A stretch of DNA of 64,000 nt from a virus (taxonomy: Duplodnaviria; Heunggongvirae; Uroviricota; Caudoviricetes), in the IMG/VR virus record IMGVR_UViG_3300045988_009865, positions 24,263 to 88,262 of that record; one strand, given 5' to 3'. A program made the position numbers and the translations under genes. Numbering within the stretch: position 1 is the first letter of the stretch; each line of letters begins with the position of its first letter. The notes under the pieces are model-generated. The model searched no databases, was not told where the DNA came from, and saw only the letters and a program-made list of their open reading frames with translations. Of this stretch, positions 38,685 to 55,362 are shown piece by piece.

Positions 38685-39566
38685 ATGAAAACATCTATCC
38701 GTGTTATAATTCATTCACCGACAAAAGGGTCTCATGAAGAAGAGTTTAACATCATCCAGTTCCCTTCTGGTGAGATTGGTGGACACTTTTCACAAGAGCT
38801 TGTTGACTTTACTGCTCACGCAGCATCATCCATCAACAATGTGATTATGATTGTAAAAGGCTATGATAAAGACACATTGTTTGCTGTGGCACTTGCTAAA
38901 GAAGCAATTGATGATTTAGTTCCTCATGAATATGCCTTAAAGACTGTCATCTTTTACTACTTACCAAATGCACGATATGACCGTCACATGTTTAAAGGTG
39001 ATGCAGCAGCTTTGAAGGTTTTTGCTAAACAGGTTAATGCAATGGGGTTTGGTGCGGTCTGTGCAGTTGACCCTCACAGTTATGTGCCAGATAACCTGTT
39101 TAACTGCTTCCAAAGTATTCCTCAAAATGAAATTGCAGTCCACTATGCAAATGACCCACTGGTTGATTACTTAGTAGCCCCAGATGCAGGTGCTTCTAAG
39201 AAGATTGCAGAGTCTGCTAAAGAGGTGGATAAACCATATATCACAATGTCTAAAGTACGTAACCTTAAGACTGGTGAAATTACTGGTATGCGAATCCTTG
39301 ATGATGTTGATTTGACAGATAAAACTGTTATGATTCTGGATGATATCTGTGATGGTGGTCGAACCTTCATAGAAGCAGCTAAACATCTTCGTGAAGCAGG
39401 TGCAAAACGTGTAGAACTCTATGTAACACATGGTATCTTTTCTAAAGGTGTTGAAAACCTTCTTGACAATGGTATTGACCACATCTACACTACAAACTCT
39501 TTAGGAGAAGCTAAAGACCGTGGCTTAACACATTATGGTCAAGTTACTGTAGCAAACCTTGATTAA
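38685..39566 (+). CDS. ribose-phosphate pyrophosphokinase-like protein (PRPP synthetase family; candidate ADPR-PP synthetase)
   Basis: 293 aa; phosphoribosyl-binding loop MILDDICDGGRTF; adjacent to NAMPT-like gene. Confidence 0.75.
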   Translation: MKTSIRVIIHSPTKGSHEEEFNIIQFPSGEIGGHFSQELVDFTAHAASSINNVIMIVKGYDKDTLFAVALAKEAIDDLVPHEYALKTVIFYYLPNARYDRHMFKGDAAALKVFAKQVNAMGFGAVCAVDPHSYVPDNLFNCFQSIPQNEIAVHYANDPLVDYLVAPDAGASKKIAESAKEVDKPYITMSKVRNLKTGEITGMRILDDVDLTDKTVMILDDICDGGRTFIEAAKHLREAGAKRVELYVTHGIFSKGVENLLDNGIDHIYTTNSLGEAKDRGLTHYGQVTVANLD

Positions 39567-39611: not shown

Positions 39612-41393
39612 ATGACTAAATCACTTTATGCAGTCCCAGCAGGTTTAAAAGCAGATGCTTACAAATCTGGTCACATTTACCAGTACCCTAGTGCAACAGA
39701 ATACTTGATGTTCAACCTGACACCACGTAGTGATAAGTGGTTTAACAGCCCTTTAGCCATTGACGGTGTAGTGGCTTTTGGTATCCAACGTTTTGTTAAA
39801 GATTATTTAATAGACCACTGGAATGCCACCTTCTTTGAACGTGACAAAAAAGAAGCAATTGACGAAATCTTAGAAGTCATGAACGGTGTTCTGGGTAAAG
39901 ATGCTATTGGTCGAGAACATTGGGAAGCACTCCACGACTTAGGTTATCTACCGGTTGAAGTATACGCTGTAGAAGAAGGCACAGTTGTCCCTATGCGTGT
40001 ACCAATGATTGTCTTCCAGAACACTGTCTCAGGTTTCCATTGGGTAGCGGGGTATCTGGAAGATGCTTTCTCTGCTGAGATTTGGAAGGCTTGTACCATT
40101 GCAACTATTGCATTGCACTACAAACGTATTTGTAAGAAGTGGTCTGACCTTACTTGTGACAATGACTTACATTTGCCTTATCAGTGCCATGACTTTGCTA
40201 TGCGTGGTATGTCTGGCTTTACTGATGACGCATTTAATGCTGTAGGTCACTTAACCAGCTTTAAAGGGACTGATAGCTTCCCTGCTGTATACACGGCTAA
40301 ACGAATCTATGGACAGTCCTACCCAATCTCTGATATTGGTAGTTCTGTACCAGCCACTGAACACTCTGTAATGTGTGCAAACATTGCTTGGGAAGGTGGC
40401 AATGAGTTGATTGAAGAAGAAAGACGTTTTAAAGGTGAGTTACAAACCTTCCGTCGTTTCTTAACAGAAACTTACCCAACTGGTATTGCAAGTGTTGTTT
40501 CAGATACTTATAACTTCTGGAGAACTGTATCAGTTATATTACCAGAACTCCGTAAAGAGATTATGGAACGTGATGGCAAACTGGTAATTCGTCCTGACTC
40601 TGGAGACCCTGTACATATTGTCACAGGTTATAAAGCAATCCACTTAGAGTGTGCTAAAAAGGCTTATTACGAACACCTAAGCAAGCTGGAAGCCAGCGAC
40701 ACAATGTTGAATGCTGTTCTGAACATGAAGCTTGAAAACATCAACTATGGTATTGCTGGATGGCTACTGTCAGAAGGATACGAGATGGTTGTTGACAGAG
40801 AAGACTTTGAAGTTGCTGATACAGTGATGTTGAAAAACGCTTATATGGTTGGTTCTGCAAACGTTGTAACACGTCCTGTAGCAGAGATTGATGGGGCTAT
40901 TAAGACCTTGTATAACATCTTTGGAGGGACTATCAACTCTAAAGGTTTTAAGGTACTGGATGAACACATTGGCCTTATTTATGGTGACTCTATCACGTTG
41001 GAACGTGCAAACGAAATCCTGAAGCGTTTGTATGAAATGGGTTTTGCAAGCTCTAACGTAGTGTTTGGTGTGGGTTCTTACACTTACCAGTACATGACTC
41101 GTGATACCTTTGCATTTGCTGTCAAAGCAACTCTTGCAAGCATTGGTGGTAAAGAGATTATGCTTGCAAAAGACCCTAAAACAGATAGTGGTGTTAAGAA
41201 GTCTGCTTTTGGTGGTGTAGCACCTATGTGGGATGGTGATAATCTGAAAGCTGTAGATGGCTATGGATTCCAGAGCTTTGCAGATGTGCTAGAGCATCCA
41301 GCTTGCGCTTTACGTTTAGTCTTTAGCGACTCTGAGCAGTTCGGTTACACAACTCTTGGTGATATTCGAAATAATATTGACAAGCAGCTTTAA
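39612..41393 (+). CDS. nicotinamide phosphoribosyltransferase-family protein (NAMPT/NadV-like; candidate Namat)
   Basis: 593 aa; N-terminal DAYKSGHIYQYP matches the NAMPT DSYK..H..QYP signature. Confidence 0.75.
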   Translation: MTKSLYAVPAGLKADAYKSGHIYQYPSATEYLMFNLTPRSDKWFNSPLAIDGVVAFGIQRFVKDYLIDHWNATFFERDKKEAIDEILEVMNGVLGKDAIGREHWEALHDLGYLPVEVYAVEEGTVVPMRVPMIVFQNTVSGFHWVAGYLEDAFSAEIWKACTIATIALHYKRICKKWSDLTCDNDLHLPYQCHDFAMRGMSGFTDDAFNAVGHLTSFKGTDSFPAVYTAKRIYGQSYPISDIGSSVPATEHSVMCANIAWEGGNELIEEERRFKGELQTFRRFLTETYPTGIASVVSDTYNFWRTVSVILPELRKEIMERDGKLVIRPDSGDPVHIVTGYKAIHLECAKKAYYEHLSKLEASDTMLNAVLNMKLENINYGIAGWLLSEGYEMVVDREDFEVADTVMLKNAYMVGSANVVTRPVAEIDGAIKTLYNIFGGTINSKGFKVLDEHIGLIYGDSITLERANEILKRLYEMGFASSNVVFGVGSYTYQYMTRDTFAFAVKATLASIGGKEIMLAKDPKTDSGVKKSAFGGVAPMWDGDNLKAVDGYGFQSFADVLEHPACALRLVFSDSEQFGYTTLGDIRNNIDKQL

Positions 41394-45974: not shown

Positions 45975-46523
45975 ATGAAGAAGTTGATTCTAGGTTTGTG
46001 CTTAATGTTTACAGCACACTTATCTTATGCAGTTGACTGCCCAGAGCTATCAATTAGCCAAAAAGTAAACATGTTAAAAGCTTACCAATATGGTGAGAAT
46101 AATATGGGTAAAGGTTGGGGTATCACTCTAGCTGCTATAGCCTTACAAGAGTCAGAGTTAGGTCTGAAGGTAGAGAATAAAAAGACCCATGACTATGGTA
46201 TCTTCCAGAATCACTTGAAGACTGTTGTAAAGCGTAACAAAATCAGTCCTAATGTGGCTAAAAAGAAACTCTTAAAAGATTTTGACTATGCTGCAAAGGA
46301 AACACACAAAGAGCTTGAGTTTTGGACGAAGGTACATGGTCAACCAAAGTCAAAGAAGACTTTACAAAAAGTTTTAGCATCATATAATGCTGGGTATTCG
46401 TACAAAATCCCTAAAGCTAAGAAATATTCTCAAGATGTCTATAACAACATGAAAGTTATTGCTCAATGTGAATTTGCAACAAACATTTCTAAGGTAAATC
46501 ATGAAAAAATTAAGAAAGTCTGA
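45975..46523 (+). CDS. secreted protein, possibly transglycosylase-like
   Basis: 182 aa; signal peptide MKKLILGLCLMFTAHLSYA; AIALQESELG...YGIFQN loosely SLT-like (weak). Confidence 0.35.
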   Translation: MKKLILGLCLMFTAHLSYAVDCPELSISQKVNMLKAYQYGENNMGKGWGITLAAIALQESELGLKVENKKTHDYGIFQNHLKTVVKRNKISPNVAKKKLLKDFDYAAKETHKELEFWTKVHGQPKSKKTLQKVLASYNAGYSYKIPKAKKYSQDVYNNMKVIAQCEFATNISKVNHEKIKKV

Positions 46524-47196
46524 TGAAGTACTGTGTCATGCTTATGACTTGCATCCTCATGAGTTAGGTCTTGATTCCTGTGTATGGACTCCAGAACAGT
46601 GTAGGGATTTTGAAGACACCGCAAGAGAAGTTGTATGTTCACTCGAAGAGTTCCACACATCAGAGACAATTGTGAATGTTGTAGATAAAGAGACTGGACA
46701 AACTATAGGTGTAAGTCGTGACAGTTTAGTCATAGTCAATAAAGACCTTGTAGAAAAAGGTAACCTTATCTTAGCAGACATTGATGGTGTTCTTACAAAT
46801 TTTAATCACGAAGATTACTCAACAGAATTGATTGATGGGTCATTTTCACAGTACACTAATTTGCTTGACTCTGTAAGTGCAAAACCAACGTATGTTTTCA
46901 ATATTATTGACGCAATCTCTAATCATGCTACTATTGGACTCTTGACAGCGAGGGGTGAATCTCAGAGAGTACCTACTGAGATGTTTTTAAGGCATTACAT
47001 AGAGCATGATTACATGCTTTTCATGCGTGGTTTTGGAACTAACTCTATAAGTGCAGAAAGTTTAAAAGTTAGGATGATTCAGTCTTGCATTCTTCCTTAC
47101 TTTAATATAGTATGCTTTATAGAAGATACAGAGAAGAATGTTCAGAAGGTAAACAGAATCCTTCCACACATCAAAACCATGTTAGTTAAACATTGA
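46501..47196 (+). CDS. hypothetical protein
   Basis: 231 aa. Confidence 0.4.
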   Translation: MKKLRKSDEVLCHAYDLHPHELGLDSCVWTPEQCRDFEDTAREVVCSLEEFHTSETIVNVVDKETGQTIGVSRDSLVIVNKDLVEKGNLILADIDGVLTNFNHEDYSTELIDGSFSQYTNLLDSVSAKPTYVFNIIDAISNHATIGLLTARGESQRVPTEMFLRHYIEHDYMLFMRGFGTNSISAESLKVRMIQSCILPYFNIVCFIEDTEKNVQKVNRILPHIKTMLVKH

Positions 47197-48830: not shown

Positions 48831-49038
48831 AAAGACCCGCAAGATTGTACGTTCAGCAGTATTCATAGGGAGAGATGAAGTCGTCCCGTTTGCAGGGGAA
48901 GATGTACTAACTTATAAGAAGGGTTTAAAACGTAAATTCAGTGACCGTTTACGCGGCTTCATCTCTGAACCATTAGAAGATTTCAAAAGTCGCTGTGGCG
49001 AAGGCATCATCATTCAAGAGGCAATTATTCATGGCTGA
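48805..49038 (+). CDS. hypothetical protein
   Basis: 77 aa. Confidence 0.3.
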   Translation: MKVILARDKKTRKIVRSAVFIGRDEVVPFAGEDVLTYKKGLKRKFSDRLRGFISEPLEDFKSRCGEGIIIQEAIIHG

Positions 49039-49231
49039 TTTCTGCAAAGATTGTGCTATCGAAATGTTTGGACGTGATACAGGTGACTTAAAAGGTCTTA
49101 TCACTGAAGATGACTTTAAAGCTGGCTATGCAATGCCAGTAATCTGTGAAGGTTGTGGATGTATCTGGGTAGACCACGAAGGACAACGTGTAAAACCTTC
49201 AGAAGATAAAGAATCTTGGGAGAGATGCTAA
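48995..49231 (+). CDS. small Cys-rich protein
   Basis: 78 aa; CKDC ... CEGCGC. Confidence 0.3.
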   Translation: MAKASSFKRQLFMADFCKDCAIEMFGRDTGDLKGLITEDDFKAGYAMPVICEGCGCIWVDHEGQRVKPSEDKESWERC

Positions 49232-50017
49232 ATGGGTATTGTAAAAATCATCAATGGGGATATCTTCTCCGCATTTGATAAAGGTAAGTTTGATATTATT
49301 GGTCACGGTTGCAACTGTATGAATTTAATGGGTGCAGGTATCGCTGACAAGATTTCTAAACTTTACCCAAAAGCATATGAGACTGATACAGAAGTCTATC
49401 TGTATGCAGGTGGTATAGGTCACAAACCCTGTGAAAATTTACTAGGCAATTTCTCTGTAGCACGTTTAGAACAAGGCCGTATAGCTAACCTTTACACTCA
49501 GCTTAAGACTGGTAAAGATGCCCGATACAGTGCTTTAGAGTCATCTTTGAAACAACTTAACAGATACTGTGAAGTCAATCAGTTGAAGAAAGTTGGGTTA
49601 CCTATGATTGGTGCAGGTATCGGTGGACTAGACTCTCAAGCCGTCACAGTCATCATTAATCAGGTGATGAAGAGTGTAGATGTGTATCTGTATGTCTATG
49701 AAGGAGAGATGTACCACAAGTTACGCTCAGGTTGGAAGAACTACTGTGAACCAGAATACTTTGCAGGTGTAGTAGTGTTCACTGATGATACAGTTACCCT
49801 CTTCAGACGAAGAAAAGGCAAGATACATCAAAGTAACCCTCCGGTTGAAAAGATGTCTCTAAGTAACGCTCTAGTTACCCACCTGTCGAAGAGCAATCAC
49901 AGGATTGCAGTAACATTTGGCAGTGATGCAGATACATATATCTATGCAAGAACTGATGAGGATGTTGAGGAAATTTTCTCTTCACCGGAAGTTACCTTCT
50001 TAGACGCAAAGAACTAA
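49232..50017 (+). CDS. macro-domain (ADP-ribose binding/processing) protein
   Basis: 261 aa; N-terminal IINGDIFSA...DIIGHGCNCMNLMGAGIA resembles the macrodomain GDI...N.AN...G.G.A signature. Confidence 0.5.
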   Translation: MGIVKIINGDIFSAFDKGKFDIIGHGCNCMNLMGAGIADKISKLYPKAYETDTEVYLYAGGIGHKPCENLLGNFSVARLEQGRIANLYTQLKTGKDARYSALESSLKQLNRYCEVNQLKKVGLPMIGAGIGGLDSQAVTVIINQVMKSVDVYLYVYEGEMYHKLRSGWKNYCEPEYFAGVVVFTDDTVTLFRRRKGKIHQSNPPVEKMSLSNALVTHLSKSNHRIAVTFGSDADTYIYARTDEDVEEIFSSPEVTFLDAKN

Positions 50018-50047
50018 GAAACTTTGTAGAATATTCACAATAGACTA

Positions 50048-50091
50048 AGCCTTTCTTATCTGGTAAATTTTTCAGGTAAGGAGGGCTTTTT
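50048..50091 (+). terminator. possible intrinsic terminator
   Basis: agcctttctta / taaggagggct stem (two G-U pairs) with long loop, then ttttt. Confidence 0.35.
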
Positions 50092-50267
50092 CATTTTAGG
50101 ATTGTGCAGGTAGAGTTCTGTAGAGAAATCTGTAGAGAAAATTTTGAACTCCAAAGAGAAAATTCATTTTCAAACTGTGCAGGTAATCTCCAAAGAGCTT
50201 TTTCATTTTCAAAACGTGCAGACCCCGCTCAGGTCGGGCAAGAAAAATCATTTTAGAATTGTGCAGG
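50091..50267. repeat. four direct repeats of about 20-35 bp (core tcatttt..a...tgcagg)
   Basis: Copies at 50091, 50164, 50203, 50248; also ctgtagagaaa x2 and ctccaaagag x2. Confidence 0.6.
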
Positions 50268-50446
50268 TAGGGTGGTGCAAGTGGGAATGTCGCCATTTCT
50301 CACAAGGCTACCACATATGAAAAGAAAAGTCAACAGAAAAATTTGTAGCGGATTGAAAAATAATTCTTGATTGTAGTTCTGTTTTGTGGTAGTCGCGTGC
50401 ACCCGTTTCATTACAGTTTTTTGCAAAAATATTTTTAAAATTCCTA

Positions 50447-50475
50447 TTGACTCTTTGAGTATGGTTATCTAATAT
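50447..50475 (+). promoter_or_regulatory. sigma70-like promoter (TTGACT-17-TAATAT) at head of small-gene array
   Basis: -35 50447-50452, -10 50470-50475. Confidence 0.55.
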
Positions 50476-50523
50476 TTGCATCAGACGGGCAATCAAGCCC
50501 ACTTCCTAAACTGGAGAATCAAA

Positions 50524-50730
50524 ATGCTTTACAGTCGTGAATTGATGGTTACAACTAACGTTAACACAAAGGTAAAACGTTTTTATATGCAAGTGTGCGG
50601 CGCATGGCGTAGAATATCAGAAGCTGACTATTGCAACTATGTAGAAACGGCTATCAATTCTAATTGCTACCTTACAATAAACACTAAGAAGTTTACAAGA
50701 CAGACAGCAATTTACTACTACGATAAATAA
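50524..50730 (+). CDS. small hypothetical protein (array gene 1)
   Basis: ATG 50524 after ctggagaatcaaa RBS; ORF-track start 50476 lies inside the promoter. Confidence 0.45.
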   Translation: MLYSRELMVTTNVNTKVKRFYMQVCGAWRRISEADYCNYVETAINSNCYLTINTKKFTRQTAIYYYDK

Positions 50731-50737
50731 AAAGTAC

Positions 50738-50766
50738 TTTACAAGGGGCTTAAAAGCTGGTATCTT
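50738..50766 (+). promoter_or_regulatory. type-1 cassette promoter candidate (TTTACA-17-TATCTT) with hairpin in spacer
   Basis: Conserved element agtacTTTACAaggggcttaa...ttaagcccc...ccttaaactaggagattcaaaaATG. Confidence 0.4.
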
Positions 50767-50820
50767 AAGCCCCAGATAAAGAGCTTTACTAAATTAACCC
50801 TTAAACTAGGAGATTCAAAA

Positions 50821-51201
50821 ATGGCTTATCGTGCACCGAAATTCATCAACAAAGACAACTTCCGCAACGCACTGGAGAAGTCACTTGATGAAAAATTTAA
50901 CGGCAAATTGATTGTTGTTCACGCATTCAATTTTAAGTATGATATTAACGGGAATAAAATCAACCATTACACGGCAACCATGTTAGATGGTACACTATCA
51001 AGTGAAAAAGCTGTACTGAATGCACTTGCAGGACGTGGTAAAAACCTGATAAGATGCGATAAGAGACGTTATCAGGGTGGCGCATATGGTTATGATGATG
51101 CTGTTTATCATCTTGAAAATATGGGCTATTCAGTGGAAAAAGCTGGAGTGTCTCAAATAATCGGCAGTGACGGCTATGTGACAATTTTCAAAATTAACTA
51201 A
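50821..51201 (+). CDS. small hypothetical protein (array gene 2)
   Basis: 126 aa; conserved leader and RBS. Confidence 0.5.
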   Translation: MAYRAPKFINKDNFRNALEKSLDEKFNGKLIVVHAFNFKYDINGNKINHYTATMLDGTLSSEKAVLNALAGRGKNLIRCDKRRYQGGAYGYDDAVYHLENMGYSVEKAGVSQIIGSDGYVTIFKIN

Positions 51202-51209
51202 TAAAGTAC

Positions 51210-51238
51210 TTTACAGGGGGCTTATAGTTCGATAAAGT
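51210..51238 (+). promoter_or_regulatory. type-1 cassette promoter candidate (TTTACA-17-TAAAGT)
   Basis: Same cassette; stem carries compensatory changes. Confidence 0.4.
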
Positions 51239-51289
51239 AAGCCCCAGATAAAGAGCTTTACCACTAAATCCTAAATTGGAGATTCAAAA

Positions 51290-51580
51290 ATGGCTATTAT
51301 TAAAAACGTTGTAATTCCTGCAAAAACTCGTGATGACGCTCGCATCATGGCGAAAAAGTTAGGCGGGAAAGTGGTTGACAACGGAAAACAAACTGCTGTA
51401 AGGTGGAACGTGAAGGCGGATAAACAAATGAATTTAAAAAATTCACCAATAAACCTTTTTACATGTGTAAACACTATCGGGAAAACGAATGTATACACTA
51501 AAAAGGCATATATCAGACGCATCGCCATGACGTCACCTATTCGTACAATGAGAAGTCATGCAAAGCTGAAAATTAAGTAA
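51290..51580 (+). CDS. small hypothetical protein (array gene 3)
   Basis: 96 aa; conserved leader. Confidence 0.5.
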   Translation: MAIIKNVVIPAKTRDDARIMAKKLGGKVVDNGKQTAVRWNVKADKQMNLKNSPINLFTCVNTIGKTNVYTKKAYIRRIAMTSPIRTMRSHAKLKIK

Positions 51581-51588
51581 TAGAGTAC

Positions 51589-51617
51589 TTTACAGGGGGC
51601 TTAAAAGCTGATATCTT
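51589..51617 (+). promoter_or_regulatory. type-1 cassette promoter candidate (TTTACA-17-TATCTT)
   Basis: Same cassette. Confidence 0.4.
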
Positions 51618-51670
51618 AAGCCCCAGATAAAGAGCTTTACCACTCAATCCTTAAACTAGGAGATTCAAAA

Positions 51671-52183
51671 ATGAAAACTGTAGACGCTACCTTTGAAGTT
51701 GTAAAAGAAAAATTTTCCATCATTTACGAAGCTGTCAATTGCTACGAAGCAAGCCATAATCTTGATAATTGGAAGTTTACAGATGACCATCAAGGTGGTG
51801 TGACTATTAAAAACCCCAACTGTCAGCGTAATGGATTTAAATATGCAATTCCTTTACATTACAGCCTTAAACAGCTTTCAATTGACTATGCAAAACAAGG
51901 CCGGGAAAATCCATCGAAAGAGGCTTACATCAGCTTACAGAAAGAACTAGAAAGAGATTTAGAGGCTTCAGAATATAACATCGCCGCGAAAGTTGTAGAT
52001 GCAAACGGTAGCACGGTTTTAGAAAGTTTTTATATTGGTTATGCTTTCGATTGGTGCTACAGTGACGGCGATGATTTAGATGACAGACTAAAAGAGGAAG
52101 TGAACAACGCAGACGCAGAATCTGAAGTATTAGAACGCTTGGAAGCATTAAAAGATTCAGTGATGAATATCTTTAAGAACTAA
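51671..52183 (+). CDS. small acidic hypothetical protein (array gene 4)
   Basis: 170 aa; D/E-rich. Confidence 0.5.
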   Translation: MKTVDATFEVVKEKFSIIYEAVNCYEASHNLDNWKFTDDHQGGVTIKNPNCQRNGFKYAIPLHYSLKQLSIDYAKQGRENPSKEAYISLQKELERDLEASEYNIAAKVVDANGSTVLESFYIGYAFDWCYSDGDDLDDRLKEEVNNADAESEVLERLEALKDSVMNIFKN

Positions 52184-52193
52184 ATAGATTTCT

Positions 52194-52222
52194 TTACACG
52201 GGGCTAACAAGCGGATATGATA
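52194..52222 (+). promoter_or_regulatory. type-1 cassette promoter candidate (TTTACA-16/17-TATGAT)
   Basis: Hairpin ggggcta...tagcccc with compensatory base change. Confidence 0.4.
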
Positions 52223-52274
52223 GCCCCAGATAAAGAGATTTATCAAATTAACCCTTAAACTAGGAGATTCTAAA

Positions 52275-52571
52275 ATGAAATTATCAAATAAAGTTAGGGA
52301 AAACCTTAGCAAATTACTCAATAAAATTGATTTTATCGAGACATCAAGGAATAGTCATGATGTTATGGAATGGTTACACGGCAAAATAAAAGGCCGTCGC
52401 GTAGTGATTTGCTTATGGAATAGTTGCAGGGAATATAAAAAGCCTGTATTGCAAGTTAATATTTATGATGATACTTTTAAAAGTCCTGTAAAGTCTAAAA
52501 GCGATTTATTAGAATCCTATGAGATAACTATAAATGGCAAAGTATCACGTAAAGAGGAAGCACCATGTTAA
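52275..52571 (+). CDS. small hypothetical protein (array gene 5)
   Basis: 98 aa. Confidence 0.45.
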   Translation: MKLSNKVRENLSKLLNKIDFIETSRNSHDVMEWLHGKIKGRRVVICLWNSCREYKKPVLQVNIYDDTFKSPVKSKSDLLESYEITINGKVSRKEEAPC

Positions 52572-52897
52572 TGATGGGTATCACTGCAATCATTGCCATT
52601 ATAGCACTGTACAAGGCTTATAGCGCATATAATTTGGCAAGTAAGGCAATCACGCAACAGGTTAATAATAGCCTTGTAATGAGCTTTCTGGAGCGTTTAA
52701 GTGATGAACAAATAAAACGGTTAGAAATGAGCTTCAGATTTCAATCAAAAACTTATCAAATCAGCGACATTTTCAAAGATAATTTTCAGCTTGTCGATGA
52801 TTATAACTCTCTGATAAATGCTTTAAATATCAGTGACTTAAAAGACTATTACACTGTAATTGTCCAAGAACTGAACAAACGAAAAAATTTCTCTTGA
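52565..52897 (+). CDS. small membrane protein (array gene 6)
   Basis: 110 aa; N-terminal TM MLMMGITAIIAIIALY; RBS gaggaag; overlaps upstream stop. Confidence 0.45.
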   Translation: MLMMGITAIIAIIALYKAYSAYNLASKAITQQVNNSLVMSFLERLSDEQIKRLEMSFRFQSKTYQISDIFKDNFQLVDDYNSLINALNISDLKDYYTVIVQELNKRKNFS

Positions 52898-52922
52898 TTT
52901 TAGTTTTAAAAACAAGTAAATT
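52894..52922 (+). promoter_or_regulatory. type-2 cassette promoter (TTGATT-17-TAAATT)
   Basis: Followed by conserved leader actaatcaacggggagg...ccttcccc...aactaggagattc. Confidence 0.5.
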
Positions 52923-52987
52923 ACTAATCAACGGGGAGGGAATGACCTTCCCCACTAAGTAAAGTCCTTAAACTAGGAGATTCAAAA

Positions 52988-53260
52988 ATGTACACTACTA
53001 ACAACGGTCGCACCTTAAACGTAACCCTACGCCACTATGTAAACGGTGTAATGCACTTCGAGGATTTACAAGCTGAACAGCACATTTTGGATTGGCAACT
53101 TGCAGGATTCCAAAAAACTGCTACCGGATACGGGAAAAAGATTCCAACCAGTTGGAAAGTATACTACGAAGGACGTTTGCGCAGAATTTATCAGGATGTG
53201 CAAAGCAATAGCGCATCGAGTTACATTATAGTAAAAGGTAAAAAGCTGCATTTAGCATAA
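52988..53260 (+). CDS. small hypothetical protein (array gene 7)
   Basis: 90 aa. Confidence 0.45.
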   Translation: MYTTNNGRTLNVTLRHYVNGVMHFEDLQAEQHILDWQLAGFQKTATGYGKKIPTSWKVYYEGRLRRIYQDVQSNSASSYIIVKGKKLHLA

Positions 53261-53265
53261 AGTAC

Positions 53266-53294
53266 TTTACAAGGGGCTTATAGTTCGATAAAGT
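53266..53294 (+). promoter_or_regulatory. type-1 cassette promoter candidate (TTTACA-17-TAAAGT)
   Basis: Near-identical to the cassette at 51210. Confidence 0.4.
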
Positions 53295-53346
53295 AAGCCC
53301 CAGATAAAGAGCTTTACCACTAAATCCTAAATTGGAGATTCAAAAA

Positions 53347-53751
53347 ATGGCTATTAATAATCGTGAGTTATCTATCTTAAAAGCACGTTTGACCGTCAAC
53401 CGGATTAATGTTATCACATCATCAGCACCAGATGAAACACTGCAAAACATTATTGGGAAGATTCAAAGTATTATCTTAGACGTTGAAAGCGTAAAAAACT
53501 CATTGGCTGACGTTGCAGCCGGTATCACGCTAGACGGTGCACAACATGAGATGGCCGACATGTTAGGCAAATCAAAGGTAATGAATAAAGAGCTTGATTT
53601 AAAGATGTTCCGATTTGCTGTTAAAGTGTGGCTATCCGTCGAGTATGACGCTAATTTTGCAATCGCTGATTTCTTTGCCACTTGGTTACAACGTAACTTA
53701 ACAAATCATGATTTCCGTGATGTCTGTGATGCAATCTACGCAGAACTTTAA
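53347..53751 (+). CDS. small hypothetical protein (array gene 8)
   Basis: Start refined to ATG 53347 after conserved leader. Confidence 0.45.
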   Translation: MAINNRELSILKARLTVNRINVITSSAPDETLQNIIGKIQSIILDVESVKNSLADVAAGITLDGAQHEMADMLGKSKVMNKELDLKMFRFAVKVWLSVEYDANFAIADFFATWLQRNLTNHDFRDVCDAIYAEL

Positions 53752-53758
53752 AAAGATG

Positions 53759-53787
53759 TTGACACTGATTTTTAGATAGATTAAATT
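53759..53787 (+). promoter_or_regulatory. type-2 cassette promoter (TTGACA-17-TAAATT)
   Basis: -35 53759-53764, -10 53782-53787. Confidence 0.55.
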
Positions 53788-53851
53788 ACTCATCAACGGG
53801 GAGGCAATAACCTCCCTACTAAATAAAGTCCTTAAACTAGGAGATTCTAAA

Positions 53852-54049
53852 ATGGCTATTATTAACGGCTTAACCATTGAAACAACACACATCAAAGATA
53901 TCAAAGTTGGTGATGTAGTCCTTTCCCACGGCGTAGAAAAAACTGTCACTGCAAAGGATATCAAAGAGGATTCTTTCATGGGTAGAACTCTCTTCGGTGA
54001 TTCTTATTGCTTAGGTTATCTTGCAGTTTTAAAAGTTGTCAAAAATTAA
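53852..54049 (+). CDS. small hypothetical protein (array gene 9)
   Basis: 65 aa. Confidence 0.4.
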   Translation: MAIINGLTIETTHIKDIKVGDVVLSHGVEKTVTAKDIKEDSFMGRTLFGDSYCLGYLAVLKVVKN

Positions 54050-54061
54050 GTAATAAAGTAC

Positions 54062-54091
54062 TTTACAAGGGGCTTAAAAAGTTGGTATCTT
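54062..54091 (+). promoter_or_regulatory. type-1 cassette promoter candidate (TTTACA-18-TATCTT)
   Basis: Same cassette. Confidence 0.4.
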
Positions 54092-54141
54092 AAGCCCCAG
54101 ATAAAGAGCTTTACACAGTCCTTAAACTAGGAGATTAAAAA

Positions 54142-54390
54142 ATGATGAACTATTTCAATATTCCTGATACCTGCCGACTATTGACACAAGAAGAAAACTT
54201 GGGTAAACCTTTTCTTTACCACATGCCAGACAACACACCAAAAACTTATAGTTACAATGTCAACCGTTTTACCGCATACGCTGCAAAGAACGGTTATAAG
54301 TTGGTCACTCAAAAAGTAATGCTGGTTACAACCGCTGACGAGATTCCTACAGTTGCAGTTAAACTAATTTTCTCAAAAAAAGTTAAATAA
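54142..54390 (+). CDS. small hypothetical protein (array gene 10)
   Basis: 82 aa. Confidence 0.45.
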   Translation: MMNYFNIPDTCRLLTQEENLGKPFLYHMPDNTPKTYSYNVNRFTAYAAKNGYKLVTQKVMLVTTADEIPTVAVKLIFSKKVK

Positions 54391-54395
54391 AGTAC

Positions 54396-54424
54396 TTTAC
54401 AGGGGGCTTAAAAGCTGATATCTT
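54396..54424 (+). promoter_or_regulatory. type-1 cassette promoter candidate (TTTACA-17-TATCTT)
   Basis: Same cassette. Confidence 0.4.
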
Positions 54425-54475
54425 AAGCCCCAGATAAAGAGCTTTACCACTAAATCCTAAACTGGAGATTCAAAA

Positions 54476-55039
54476 ATGAAATGCTATCACGGAACTACCC
54501 TCAAAAACTTTGTAAACCTGCTGAATGGTGGCGACAAGCCGGAAGGAATCTGGAACTGCTCCTACATGGATGATTGTTTCTACGTTTACCCAATGAACAA
54601 GATTATCAAAACGGAATGTCTGGAAGATGAGGAAGATTCTTACATTCGTGAACGCTGCATTCAAAACGCTTTAGAATCTGGGCTTATTACGGCAGCTTTC
54701 CAAATGGAAACGCAGGACGTAATTGTCATTGAGATGGATATCCCAGAGGAAGAGTTAGAGGATGATTATTCTTGTGACAACATGAGCGATATCGCCAGCT
54801 TTACCGGACACTTTGATAAAGGTTGGATTATTGGCCTTCACTCGACGAAATTTAGTGCGATGTATGCACCTTTCTTTGTACCAGATGCAACTAACCGCAA
54901 TTTAGGCTATGTTGACGATGATTTGTTAAGTATGGCGAAAATTGTACAGAATAGCGGTGATAGTTCCGTGTTTTGTGACTTGCTGGATAAAATCACGGCA
55001 AACATCACAGAACGCAATTTAAAAGACTTTTTAGGTTAA
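54476..55039 (+). CDS. acidic hypothetical protein (array gene 11)
   Basis: 187 aa; D/E-rich stretch DIPEEELEDDYSCDNMSD. Confidence 0.5.
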   Translation: MKCYHGTTLKNFVNLLNGGDKPEGIWNCSYMDDCFYVYPMNKIIKTECLEDEEDSYIRERCIQNALESGLITAAFQMETQDVIVIEMDIPEEELEDDYSCDNMSDIASFTGHFDKGWIIGLHSTKFSAMYAPFFVPDATNRNLGYVDDDLLSMAKIVQNSGDSSVFCDLLDKITANITERNLKDFLG

Positions 55040-55102
55040 TCAGTACAAAGATACCAACTTTCAACTTAAGGCCCATACAGGGCCATTTAAAGGGCTTAAA
55101 TC

Positions 55103-55336
55103 ATGCTTACAACCATTTACCTCATCCTTTCCATTTGTAACGGTCATTCATGCGATTTTGAAGAGCTTGGGGAGTTTACAGGGAGTAAAGAAAATGCTAT
55201 TCAGGTTTGCCAGATAGCAAGACAAGACTACCCCGCCAGTGATGATATTCAATGTTACTTTAAGACAGAAGACAGCGACGGCGTTTATTTTGATAGCGTT
55301 GACGGAAAACATGAAATTATCATAGAAAAAGACTAG
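55103..55336 (+). CDS. small hypothetical protein (array gene 12, no conserved cassette)
   Basis: 77 aa; preceded by ggcccatacagggcc hairpin. Confidence 0.35.
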   Translation: MLTTIYLILSICNGHSCDFEELGEFTGSKENAIQVCQIARQDYPASDDIQCYFKTEDSDGVYFDSVDGKHEIIIEKD

Positions 55337-55362
55337 ACAAGCCGGATAAAAATCTGTAAATT
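55334..55362 (+). promoter_or_regulatory. type-2 cassette promoter (TAGACA-17-TAAATT)
   Basis: Followed by leader with gggagg/cctccc hairpin. Confidence 0.5.

Follow-up and report, generated by a model that had tools for sequence, protein, structure and literature searches.

A two-domain Felixounavirus macrodomain protein related to T4 Tk.4 (AdfM), a candidate for removing DarT2-type ADP-ribose from phage DNA

The window analyzed here, a stretch of 64,000 nucleotides from a tailed-phage genome (positions 24,263 to 88,262 of IMG/VR record IMGVR_UViG_3300045988_009865), is assigned by megablast of the region to Felixounavirus (Ounavirinae, the Felix O1-like myoviruses of E. coli, Salmonella and Shigella), the region being 92-96% identical to many Felixounavirus genomes. 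The gene of interest, at 49232..50017 on the + strand, is complete in the open reading frame listing (ATG to TAA, 261 codons) and encodes a two-domain macrodomain protein of 261 aa and 29 kDa that belongs to PHROG 335. The N-terminal peptide quoted in an earlier, sequence-only reading of this DNA (INGDIFSA...DIIGHGCNCMNLMGAGIA) corresponds to residues 6-38 of the encoded protein. A Shine-Dalgarno-like GGGAGAG, read from the sequence, lies 7 nt before the ATG (49218..49224, +), and the ATG itself abuts the stop codon of an upstream 78-aa ORF (TAAATG; 48995..49231), which suggests that the two genes are translationally coupled. The product of this small ORF has a CxxC...CxxC pattern; it was rejected as a conserved partner, since no homologue was detectable upstream of the macrodomain genes of distant two-domain relatives. 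In one such relative the same upstream spot codes for a small CxxC protein that is unrelated. Neither of the two ORFs immediately upstream of the macrodomain gene was matched by PADLOC.

On the downstream side, a terminator-like hairpin of 17 pairs (50047-50088, with a T-run extending to 50098, + strand; a pattern match only, from a consensus scan) starts 30 nt past the stop codon and probably closes the transcription unit. Beyond it begins an array of small genes in which promoter/stem-loop/RBS cassettes recur, just where the sequence-only reading had placed it; Rfam gave no credible RNA element in the region 49900-50900. The macrodomain gene is flanked by small phage ORFs that fall in PHROGs 2210, 6082, 4453 and 4391, none with a known function, and no darT is found beside it.

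Profile searches and structural modelling both place a macrodomain of the ALC1/TARG1/DarG/Poa1p class in the N-terminal 158 residues (49232..49705, +). Pfam PF01661 (Macro), whose gathering cut-off is 22 bits, matches residues 25-141 with a score of 31.3 (E=2e-7), and the match spans positions 2-117 of the 118 in the profile; PHROG 335, labeled 'phosphatase', matches the full-length protein with E=4e-113. When the PDB was searched with a profile built from 21 family members, TARG1/OARD1, DarG (M. tuberculosis and Thermus), SCO6735, BT1257 and Poa1p came up with E-values from 1e-13 to 1e-17, those for SCO6735 (5E3B) and BT1257 (2FG1) being 4.6e-15 and 1e-14. An AlphaFold2 model made from the same alignment has a mean pLDDT of 90.6 and a pTM of 0.88, and it matched 240 PDB macrodomain chains at E<=1e-3 in Foldseek, the best being TARG1 (4j5q, E=1e-10), Poa1p and Thermus DarG, with a target TM of 0.75-0.84 (0.81-0.84 for TARG1 and 0.75-0.76 for Poa1p). 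The model contains the three-layer alpha/beta/alpha fold with a central mixed beta-sheet. The macrodomain signature that had been proposed for the N-terminus is thus borne out: the HMM search suggested at that time as a check scored above the cut-off, and the lack of a macrodomain fold, which would have spoken against the idea, is not what the structure prediction gave. Motifs for ADP-ribose binding are present as N28, MGAGIA (33-38) and IGAGIGG (126-132) and are invariant or nearly so throughout the family, in which H25, N28, M33, G36, N86, T89, Q90, P124, G127 and G129 are among the invariant residues. In NCBIfam as in PADLOC the best-scoring library entry is DarG, with a match confined to the macrodomain part; the NCBIfam DarG equivalog NF048014, which calls for a full-length match, reaches 48 bits against a cut-off of 250.

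The remainder of the protein (residues 159-261; 49706..50014, +) is a second, lineage-specific domain of six beta-strands and a terminal helix, which the sequence-only reading did not mention. It is modeled confidently, with a pLDDT of 78 on its own and block values of 82-94 within the full model, and packs against the macrodomain in the AlphaFold2 model. For these C-terminal ~100 residues no match was found outside the phage lineage, and the only residues conserved within it are Pro174, Gly179 and Tyr236. The net charge varies among relatives (pI 4.6 to 8.8), so a role as a conserved DNA mimic or conserved DNA binder is unsupported. The DarT-binding domain of DarG can likewise be ruled out, since the NCBIfam and PADLOC models for DarG match the macrodomain alone. 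The domain may bind a partner or a substrate; it is the sole unexplained feature of the protein, and as a conserved orphan it offers a small, tractable target.

Of particular relevance to function is the residue at the position of the catalytic lysine (TARG1 K84, DarG K80). In an ungapped HMMER alignment to TARG1, Gln90 (codon 49499..49501, +) lies opposite K84 and G131 opposite D125, and the family alignments agree for Gln90, which sits in an NLYTQ motif and is invariant in the phage family (16-34 members aligned), T4 Tk.4 included. Neither the TARG1/DarG-type catalytic Lys nor the Asp125 of TARG1 is present, and the protein is therefore, as judged from these alignments, not a Lys-type hydrolase such as DarG, TARG1 or PhiKZ gp104. 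The motif HGCNC (H25-C29; 49304..49318, +), which is identical in T4 Tk.4, aligns best with the HSCNC of Poa1p, with H25 opposite H23 of that enzyme, and the Asn within it, N28, corresponds to the conserved macrodomain Asn (N22 in DarG, N27 in SCO6735), whose role has been described (PMC9411070, PMC13309987). In the case of the Streptomyces enzyme SCO6735, Q85 has been equated with TARG1 K84 and DarG K80; the Q85A and N27S mutants are inactive, and the wild type is quicker than DarG or TARG1 at stripping from thymidine the ADP-ribose that DarT installs (PMC9411070). A Gln at the position of the catalytic Lys is thus compatible with catalysis. The combination characteristic of SCO6735 and BT1257, such a Gln together with the conserved Asn, is present here as Q90 and N28, the equivalence of Q90 and SCO6735 Q85 being transitive, through the alignment to TARG1 K84 and the statement in PMC9411070. 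From motif spacing, the DNA-positioning K34 of SCO6735 (MG-K-GIA) would appear to be Ala35 in the Felixounavirus protein, and K92 or K95 might stand in for K89, a further DNA-positioning lysine of SCO6735.

The gene belongs to a family that is already known, in that it is annotated and two of its members, T4 Tk.4 and Adpp, have been characterized. Over 250 phage genomes have a conserved copy, at 33-99% identity, and the cluster of 99%-identical proteins has 1060 member sequences; more than 200 phage genomes carry an annotation, as '(putative) phosphatase' or 'O-acetyl-ADP-ribose deacetylase', with some entries reading 'hypothetical protein'. By tblastn the macro part occurs at 2861 places in 2855 phage records, essentially one per genome, among them T4-like, rV5-like, Kuttervirus, Pakpunavirus and many Vibrio phages, and 257 phage records have the two-domain form. 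The distant two-domain relatives at 33-43% identity, in phages P0011 and P0018 and Erwinia phage Coenus, retain the synteny rIIA - rIIB - ... - HAD/PNKP-like - ... - macro. We found no direct experimental data in the literature for the Felixounavirus gene itself; PhageMaP on Bas63 omits it, and DarTG was outside the tests of that study.

The T4 gene tk.4 was found, by a transposon screen and a clean knockout, to be needed only on hosts expressing DarTG2, and its product was named AdfM (bioRxiv 10.1101/2025.11.20.689424). That evidence, from a preprint, is genetic only, and the enzymatic removal of ADP-ribose from DNA by Tk.4 is itself an inference. We favor, with roughly even confidence, a corresponding role for the Felixounavirus protein, in which it would remove DarT2-type ADP-ribose from thymidine in phage DNA. 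Host DarT2 would attach ADP-ribose to thymidines of single-stranded phage DNA; the macrodomain would then bind the ADP-ribose and hydrolyze the ribose-base bond, restoring replicable DNA and releasing free ADP-ribose. The route would be of the Gln type, as in SCO6735, with Gln90, held by Asn28, positioning the distal ribose in place of the Lys of DarG and TARG1. Fold, family membership, active-site residues and genomic position come from the present analysis, while the substrate (DNA-thymidine-ADPr) and the defense countered (DarTG2) are what we infer from the genetics of the T4 homologue and the biochemistry of SCO6735. The apparent replacement of the DNA-positioning K34 by Ala35 counts against such an activity toward DarT2 marks. 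In addition, this phage has NARP1 and macrodomains are often promiscuous, so the protein may instead play, in trans, a role like that of Adpp.

We think that second role rather unlikely. Adpp is a Macro-domain protein encoded between Adps and Namat in ~15% of NARP1 operons, where it turns ADPR-1''-phosphate, the product of the RES-domain NADase defense aRES, into ADPR and so rescues NARP1 (bioRxiv 10.64898/2026.01.28.702374). A Prs-like gene (38685..39566) and a NAMPT-like gene (Namat; 39612..41393), noticed earlier in the sequence and now confirmed by Pfam, form the NARP1 pair of this genome, upstream of the macrodomain gene; the same pair in Felixounavirus Bas63 is the founding example of NARP1. 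The macrodomain protein might accordingly act as an ADPR-1''-phosphate phosphatase whose product Adps and Namat, 7.8 kb upstream, would rebuild into NAD+, amounting to a split NARP1-AP. Both it and the proven Adpp of Vibrio phage Gary fall in one broad family, tblastn searches from the one or the other each recovering ~2700-2850 phage records; its HGCNC motif comes closest to that of Poa1p from yeast, which is an ADPR-1''-P phosphatase; with about one family macrodomain per genome (2861/2855), a NARP1 phage has no other candidate; and macrodomains commonly dephosphorylate ADPR-1''-P in vitro (bioRxiv 10.64898/2026.01.28.702374). Against this, Ser30 of Poa1p is replaced by Leu32, and the gene lies outside the NARP1 operon, with ~12 + strand genes, rIIA and rIIB among them, in between. 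The published criterion for NARP1 association is a position within two genes of Adps and Namat (bioRxiv 10.64898/2026.01.28.702374); here Namat ends at 41393 and the macrodomain gene starts at 49232. Nor is the gene in the published list of NARP1-associated macrodomains, a table (Table S1) with no Escherichia, Salmonella or Erwinia phages.

A further distinction lies in the loop that follows the invariant Gln. We aligned 13 Adpp sequences (from the published table, Gary and VF16), T4 Tk.4 and the family of the Felixounavirus protein; addition of KissB brought the Adpp set to 14. The arrangement Adps-macro-Namat is seen in Vibrio phage VF16, phage Gary and Acinetobacter phage KissB. Between Q90 and Y99, 8 residues (TQxxxGxxxxY) make up the loop in the Felixounavirus protein and every two-domain relative of it, as well as in T4 Tk.4, rV5-like slur12 and Kuttervirus Se-J, whereas NARP1-embedded Adpp has 12-15 residues with a QY[NHD][YW] start in all 14 aligned (that of Gary Adpp is QYHWHAHKVAPGRNT), and all eight NARP1-adjacent genes from IMG/VR have 11-14; the long aromatic loop is thus present in 22 of the 22 NARP1-adjacent macrodomains examined and absent here. 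Among 79 IMG/VR loci retrieved with the family alignment, Adps or Namat lies within 6 kb of none of the 47 short-loop genes vs. 8 of the 32 long-loop ones (0/24-28 vs. 7/30 after dereplication at 70-90% identity, Fisher p ~0.01). Some long-loop genes, among them the one in Pectobacterium phage DU_PP_IV, are not close to any NARP1 gene. Loop length is our own correlate of genomic context, neither a published criterion nor a demonstrated determinant of specificity.

Similarity scores point in the same direction: in tblastn, IMG/VR copies of the Felixounavirus gene (98-99% identical to the protein studied here) score ~81-82 bits with T4 Tk.4 and ~53 with Gary Adpp, although in identity the gap is not large (35% to T4 Tk.4 and 28-34% to some Adpp sequences). 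In a neighbor-joining tree the two-domain clade (bootstrap 95) falls on the T4 side, but the node joining it to T4 has only 12% support, and we gave phylogeny little weight as a classifier because of this deep value. Taken together, loop, position, scores and tree favor the AdfM type over Adpp, while leaving substrate specificity unproven. The connection that the sequence-only reading drew between the macrodomain and the Prs-like/NAMPT-like pair is therefore real in other phages, where Adpp is part of the NARP1 operon, but in this genome distance, the short loop and the absence from the published list weaken it. Of the two functions then offered, reversal of ADP-ribosylation by toxins has the stronger backing, from T4 Tk.4/AdfM, the nearest relative that has been characterized, while for degradation of ADPR-derived immune signals we found no support.

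Removal of DarT2 marks also has to be set against action on some other ADP-ribosylated substrate that is not specific to DarT2, such as Glu/Asp-ADPr on proteins, ADPr-RNA (e.g. of the CmdTAC type) or O-acetyl-ADP-ribose (in sirtuin-type defenses), which we regard as doubtful. TARG1 (OARD1) and SCO6735, among the closest structures, do act on protein-ADPr and O-acyl-ADPr as well, and the additional C-terminal domain could steer the enzyme to a different target; the Lys/Asp dyad with which TARG1 carries out protein de-ADP-ribosylation is gone, however (Q90 and G131), and no homologue in the phage family has been tied to such substrates. Several GenBank records do read O-acetyl-ADP-ribose deacetylase, but those labels are automatic transfers. 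That the protein should be a non-catalytic binder of ADPR derivatives, a sponge or sensor that sequesters, for example, Thoeris-type cyclic ADPR signals, appears very improbable: some macrodomains are readers only (PMC9503650) and the phage protein lacks the catalytic Lys and Asp of TARG1, but in SCO6735 a Gln at the Lys position supports catalysis, the family shows no variation in Asn28 or in either Gly-rich loop, features typical of active macrodomains, and the two characterized relatives, T4 Tk.4 and Adpp, act as enzymes or are predicted to.

More elaborate proposals can also be made, to which we would give a small chance. The protein might be a two-pronged anti-defense factor, with the macrodomain erasing DarT2 marks while the C-terminal domain binds and blocks the toxin, in convergence with the DarT-binding domain of DarG though of unrelated fold; or the C-terminal domain might tether the enzyme to replicating ssDNA or a replisome protein; or a single short-loop enzyme might combine DNA de-ADP-ribosylation with the supply of ADPR in trans to NARP1.

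Felix O1-like phages are widely used in the biocontrol and typing of Salmonella and E. coli. If the protein does counter DarTG2, these phages would have, beside NARP1, a second and independent layer of counter-defense against ADP-ribose-based immunity, and the gene would help to predict their host range on strains that carry DarTG. In the samples examined, the length of the post-Gln loop separates NARP1-embedded Adpp from the T4 AdfM type; should this rule hold experimentally, ~2,800 phage macrodomain genes labeled 'phosphatase' could be sorted by likely substrate.

Among known systems, TARG1/OARD1 of humans and Poa1p of yeast are the best structural matches, and Poa1p shares the H-x-C-N-C motif; both are eukaryotic cellular enzymes, and the K84/D125 dyad of TARG1 and S30 of Poa1p are replaced in the phage protein as described above. 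DarG2 of Thermus and M. tuberculosis (5M31, 5M3I) and PhiKZ gp104, a chimallivirus AdfM with N23 and K78 (PMC13309987), have a macrodomain of the same class, and DarG2 is also a two-domain protein with the macrodomain at its N-terminus. The catalytic Lys of DarG (K80) and PhiKZ gp104 (K78) is a Gln in the Felixounavirus protein, whose C-terminal domain does not resemble the DarT-binding domain of DarG, and DarG2 is paired with darT whereas this gene has no darT adjacent. SCO6735 and BT1257, a subclass of the ALC1-like macrodomains, share the active-site arrangement of the phage protein, in which Gln replaces the catalytic Lys and the conserved Asn supports it, and are stand-alone proteins able to reverse the ADP-ribosylation of thymidine by DarT (PMC9411070); they are bacterial rather than phage-encoded, however, and SCO6735 differs in the spacing past the Gln (Q-x-G vs. 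Q-x3-G) and in the K34 that is apparently, by motif spacing, Ala35 in the phage protein.

Within the phage family, Gary Adpp (KNV71_gp137; 28% identity) is likewise Poa1p-like with an invariant Gln, and both phages encode Adps and Namat. Adpp is encoded between or beside these two genes rather than 7.8 kb away, mostly has HQ[AC]NC where the Felixounavirus protein has HGCNC, and [YH][GA]Q where it has YTQ, and has a post-Gln loop that is 4-7 residues longer and contains aromatics. T4 Tk.4, the relative for which alone the anti-DarTG2 phenotype has been shown, differs in being a single domain of 155 aa, as opposed to one extended by ~100 C-terminal residues, and in coming from a phage without NARP1. 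Otherwise the likeness is extensive: both proteins belong to PHROG 335, with about 34-35% identity over 160 residues (BLASTP, E=4e-24); both genes are orphans with no toxin partner, in virulent myoviruses of enterobacteria; both proteins have the 8-residue loop past the Gln; and the motifs HGCNC, NLYTQ and IGAGIG are identical in the two, so that T4 AdfM, having the same NLYTQ, is of the Gln type too.

Upstream of the macro gene, on the same strand, lies a pair of genes: a Prs-like gene (38685-39566, +; Pribosyltran and Pribosyl_synth domains) and, adjoining it, a NAMPT-like gene (39612-41393, +; NAPRTase and NAMPT_N domains). These are the counterparts of Adps and Namat, the enzymes of the NAD+ reconstitution pathway NARP1, and the same pair is formed by genes 79-80 of Felixounavirus Bas63, from which phage NAD+ reconstitution was first described in print.

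The ATG of the macro gene directly abuts the stop codon of a 78-aa ORF (48995-49231, +; PHROG 2210), whose two CxxC pairs (CKDC...CEGCGC) give it the look of a zinc ribbon. No homologue of this ORF was detectable upstream of the distant two-domain relatives, the phage proteins 33-43% identical to the macro-gene product that have both of its domains; at the locus of one of them (L006), a small, unrelated CxxC protein is encoded at the same position. Further upstream, a 231-aa ORF (46501-47196, +) is conserved, with counterparts of 34-38% identity that occupy the corresponding place in distant Ounavirinae-like contigs. These counterparts give weak Pfam matches to HAD_PNKP, and that of Erwinia phage Coenus is annotated as a polynucleotide kinase; the product may be an RNA/DNA-end phosphatase.

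Just 3' of the macro gene's terminator is an apparently non-coding gap of about 450 nt, holding three direct repeats of 26-34 nt each (TCATTTTAGGATTGTGCAGGTAG...; 50091-50273, +); an Rfam search across this gap gave no credible match. The small-gene array that follows contains repeated cassettes of about 90 nt (50700-56620, +), with 5-9 copies in each repeat family. Each cassette has a promoter-like site, TTTACA..TATCTT/TAAAGT, overlapped by a GGGGCTTAA...TTAAGCCCC stem-loop, with a conserved ribosome-binding and start region, CCTTAAACTAGGAGATTCAAAAATG, 3' of the stem-loop; a second cassette type bears a GGGAGGCAATAACCTCCC hairpin. Further downstream, clusters of tandem or near-tandem 11-12-nt repeats (CTTGTTA[GA]...; AGGCTTGTTAGA) at 57354-57790 and 58239-58410 (+) resemble iterons; they could serve as sites where proteins bind, or form an origin-like region. 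The three tandem copies of a unit of about 249 nt at 63204-64000 (-), 65-73% identical, are a repeated protein domain within a 254-aa ORF that heads towards the window end and possibly encodes a fibre or decoration protein.

In Vibrio phages VF16 (locus L003, 1009-9818) and Gary (L004, 57-8471) and in Acinetobacter phage KissB (L010, 1-4456), the three-gene NARP1-AP operon, which adds the Macro-domain phosphatase Adpp, is bordered by genes for an RNA ligase, a 'phosphoesterase' and an ATPase, a hint that RNA-repair modules are tied to NAD+/ADPR salvage. Ackermannviridae phages related to Salmonella phage Se-J (Kuttervirus) also have, at another genomic location, a gene for a Namat homologue. 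The macrodomain gene of Se-J itself (L012, 3970-4590) is of the short-loop T4 type, with a loop of 8 residues after the catalytic-position Gln, and carries an acidic C-terminal extension of about 50 residues that is unrelated to the Felixounavirus protein's C-terminal domain.
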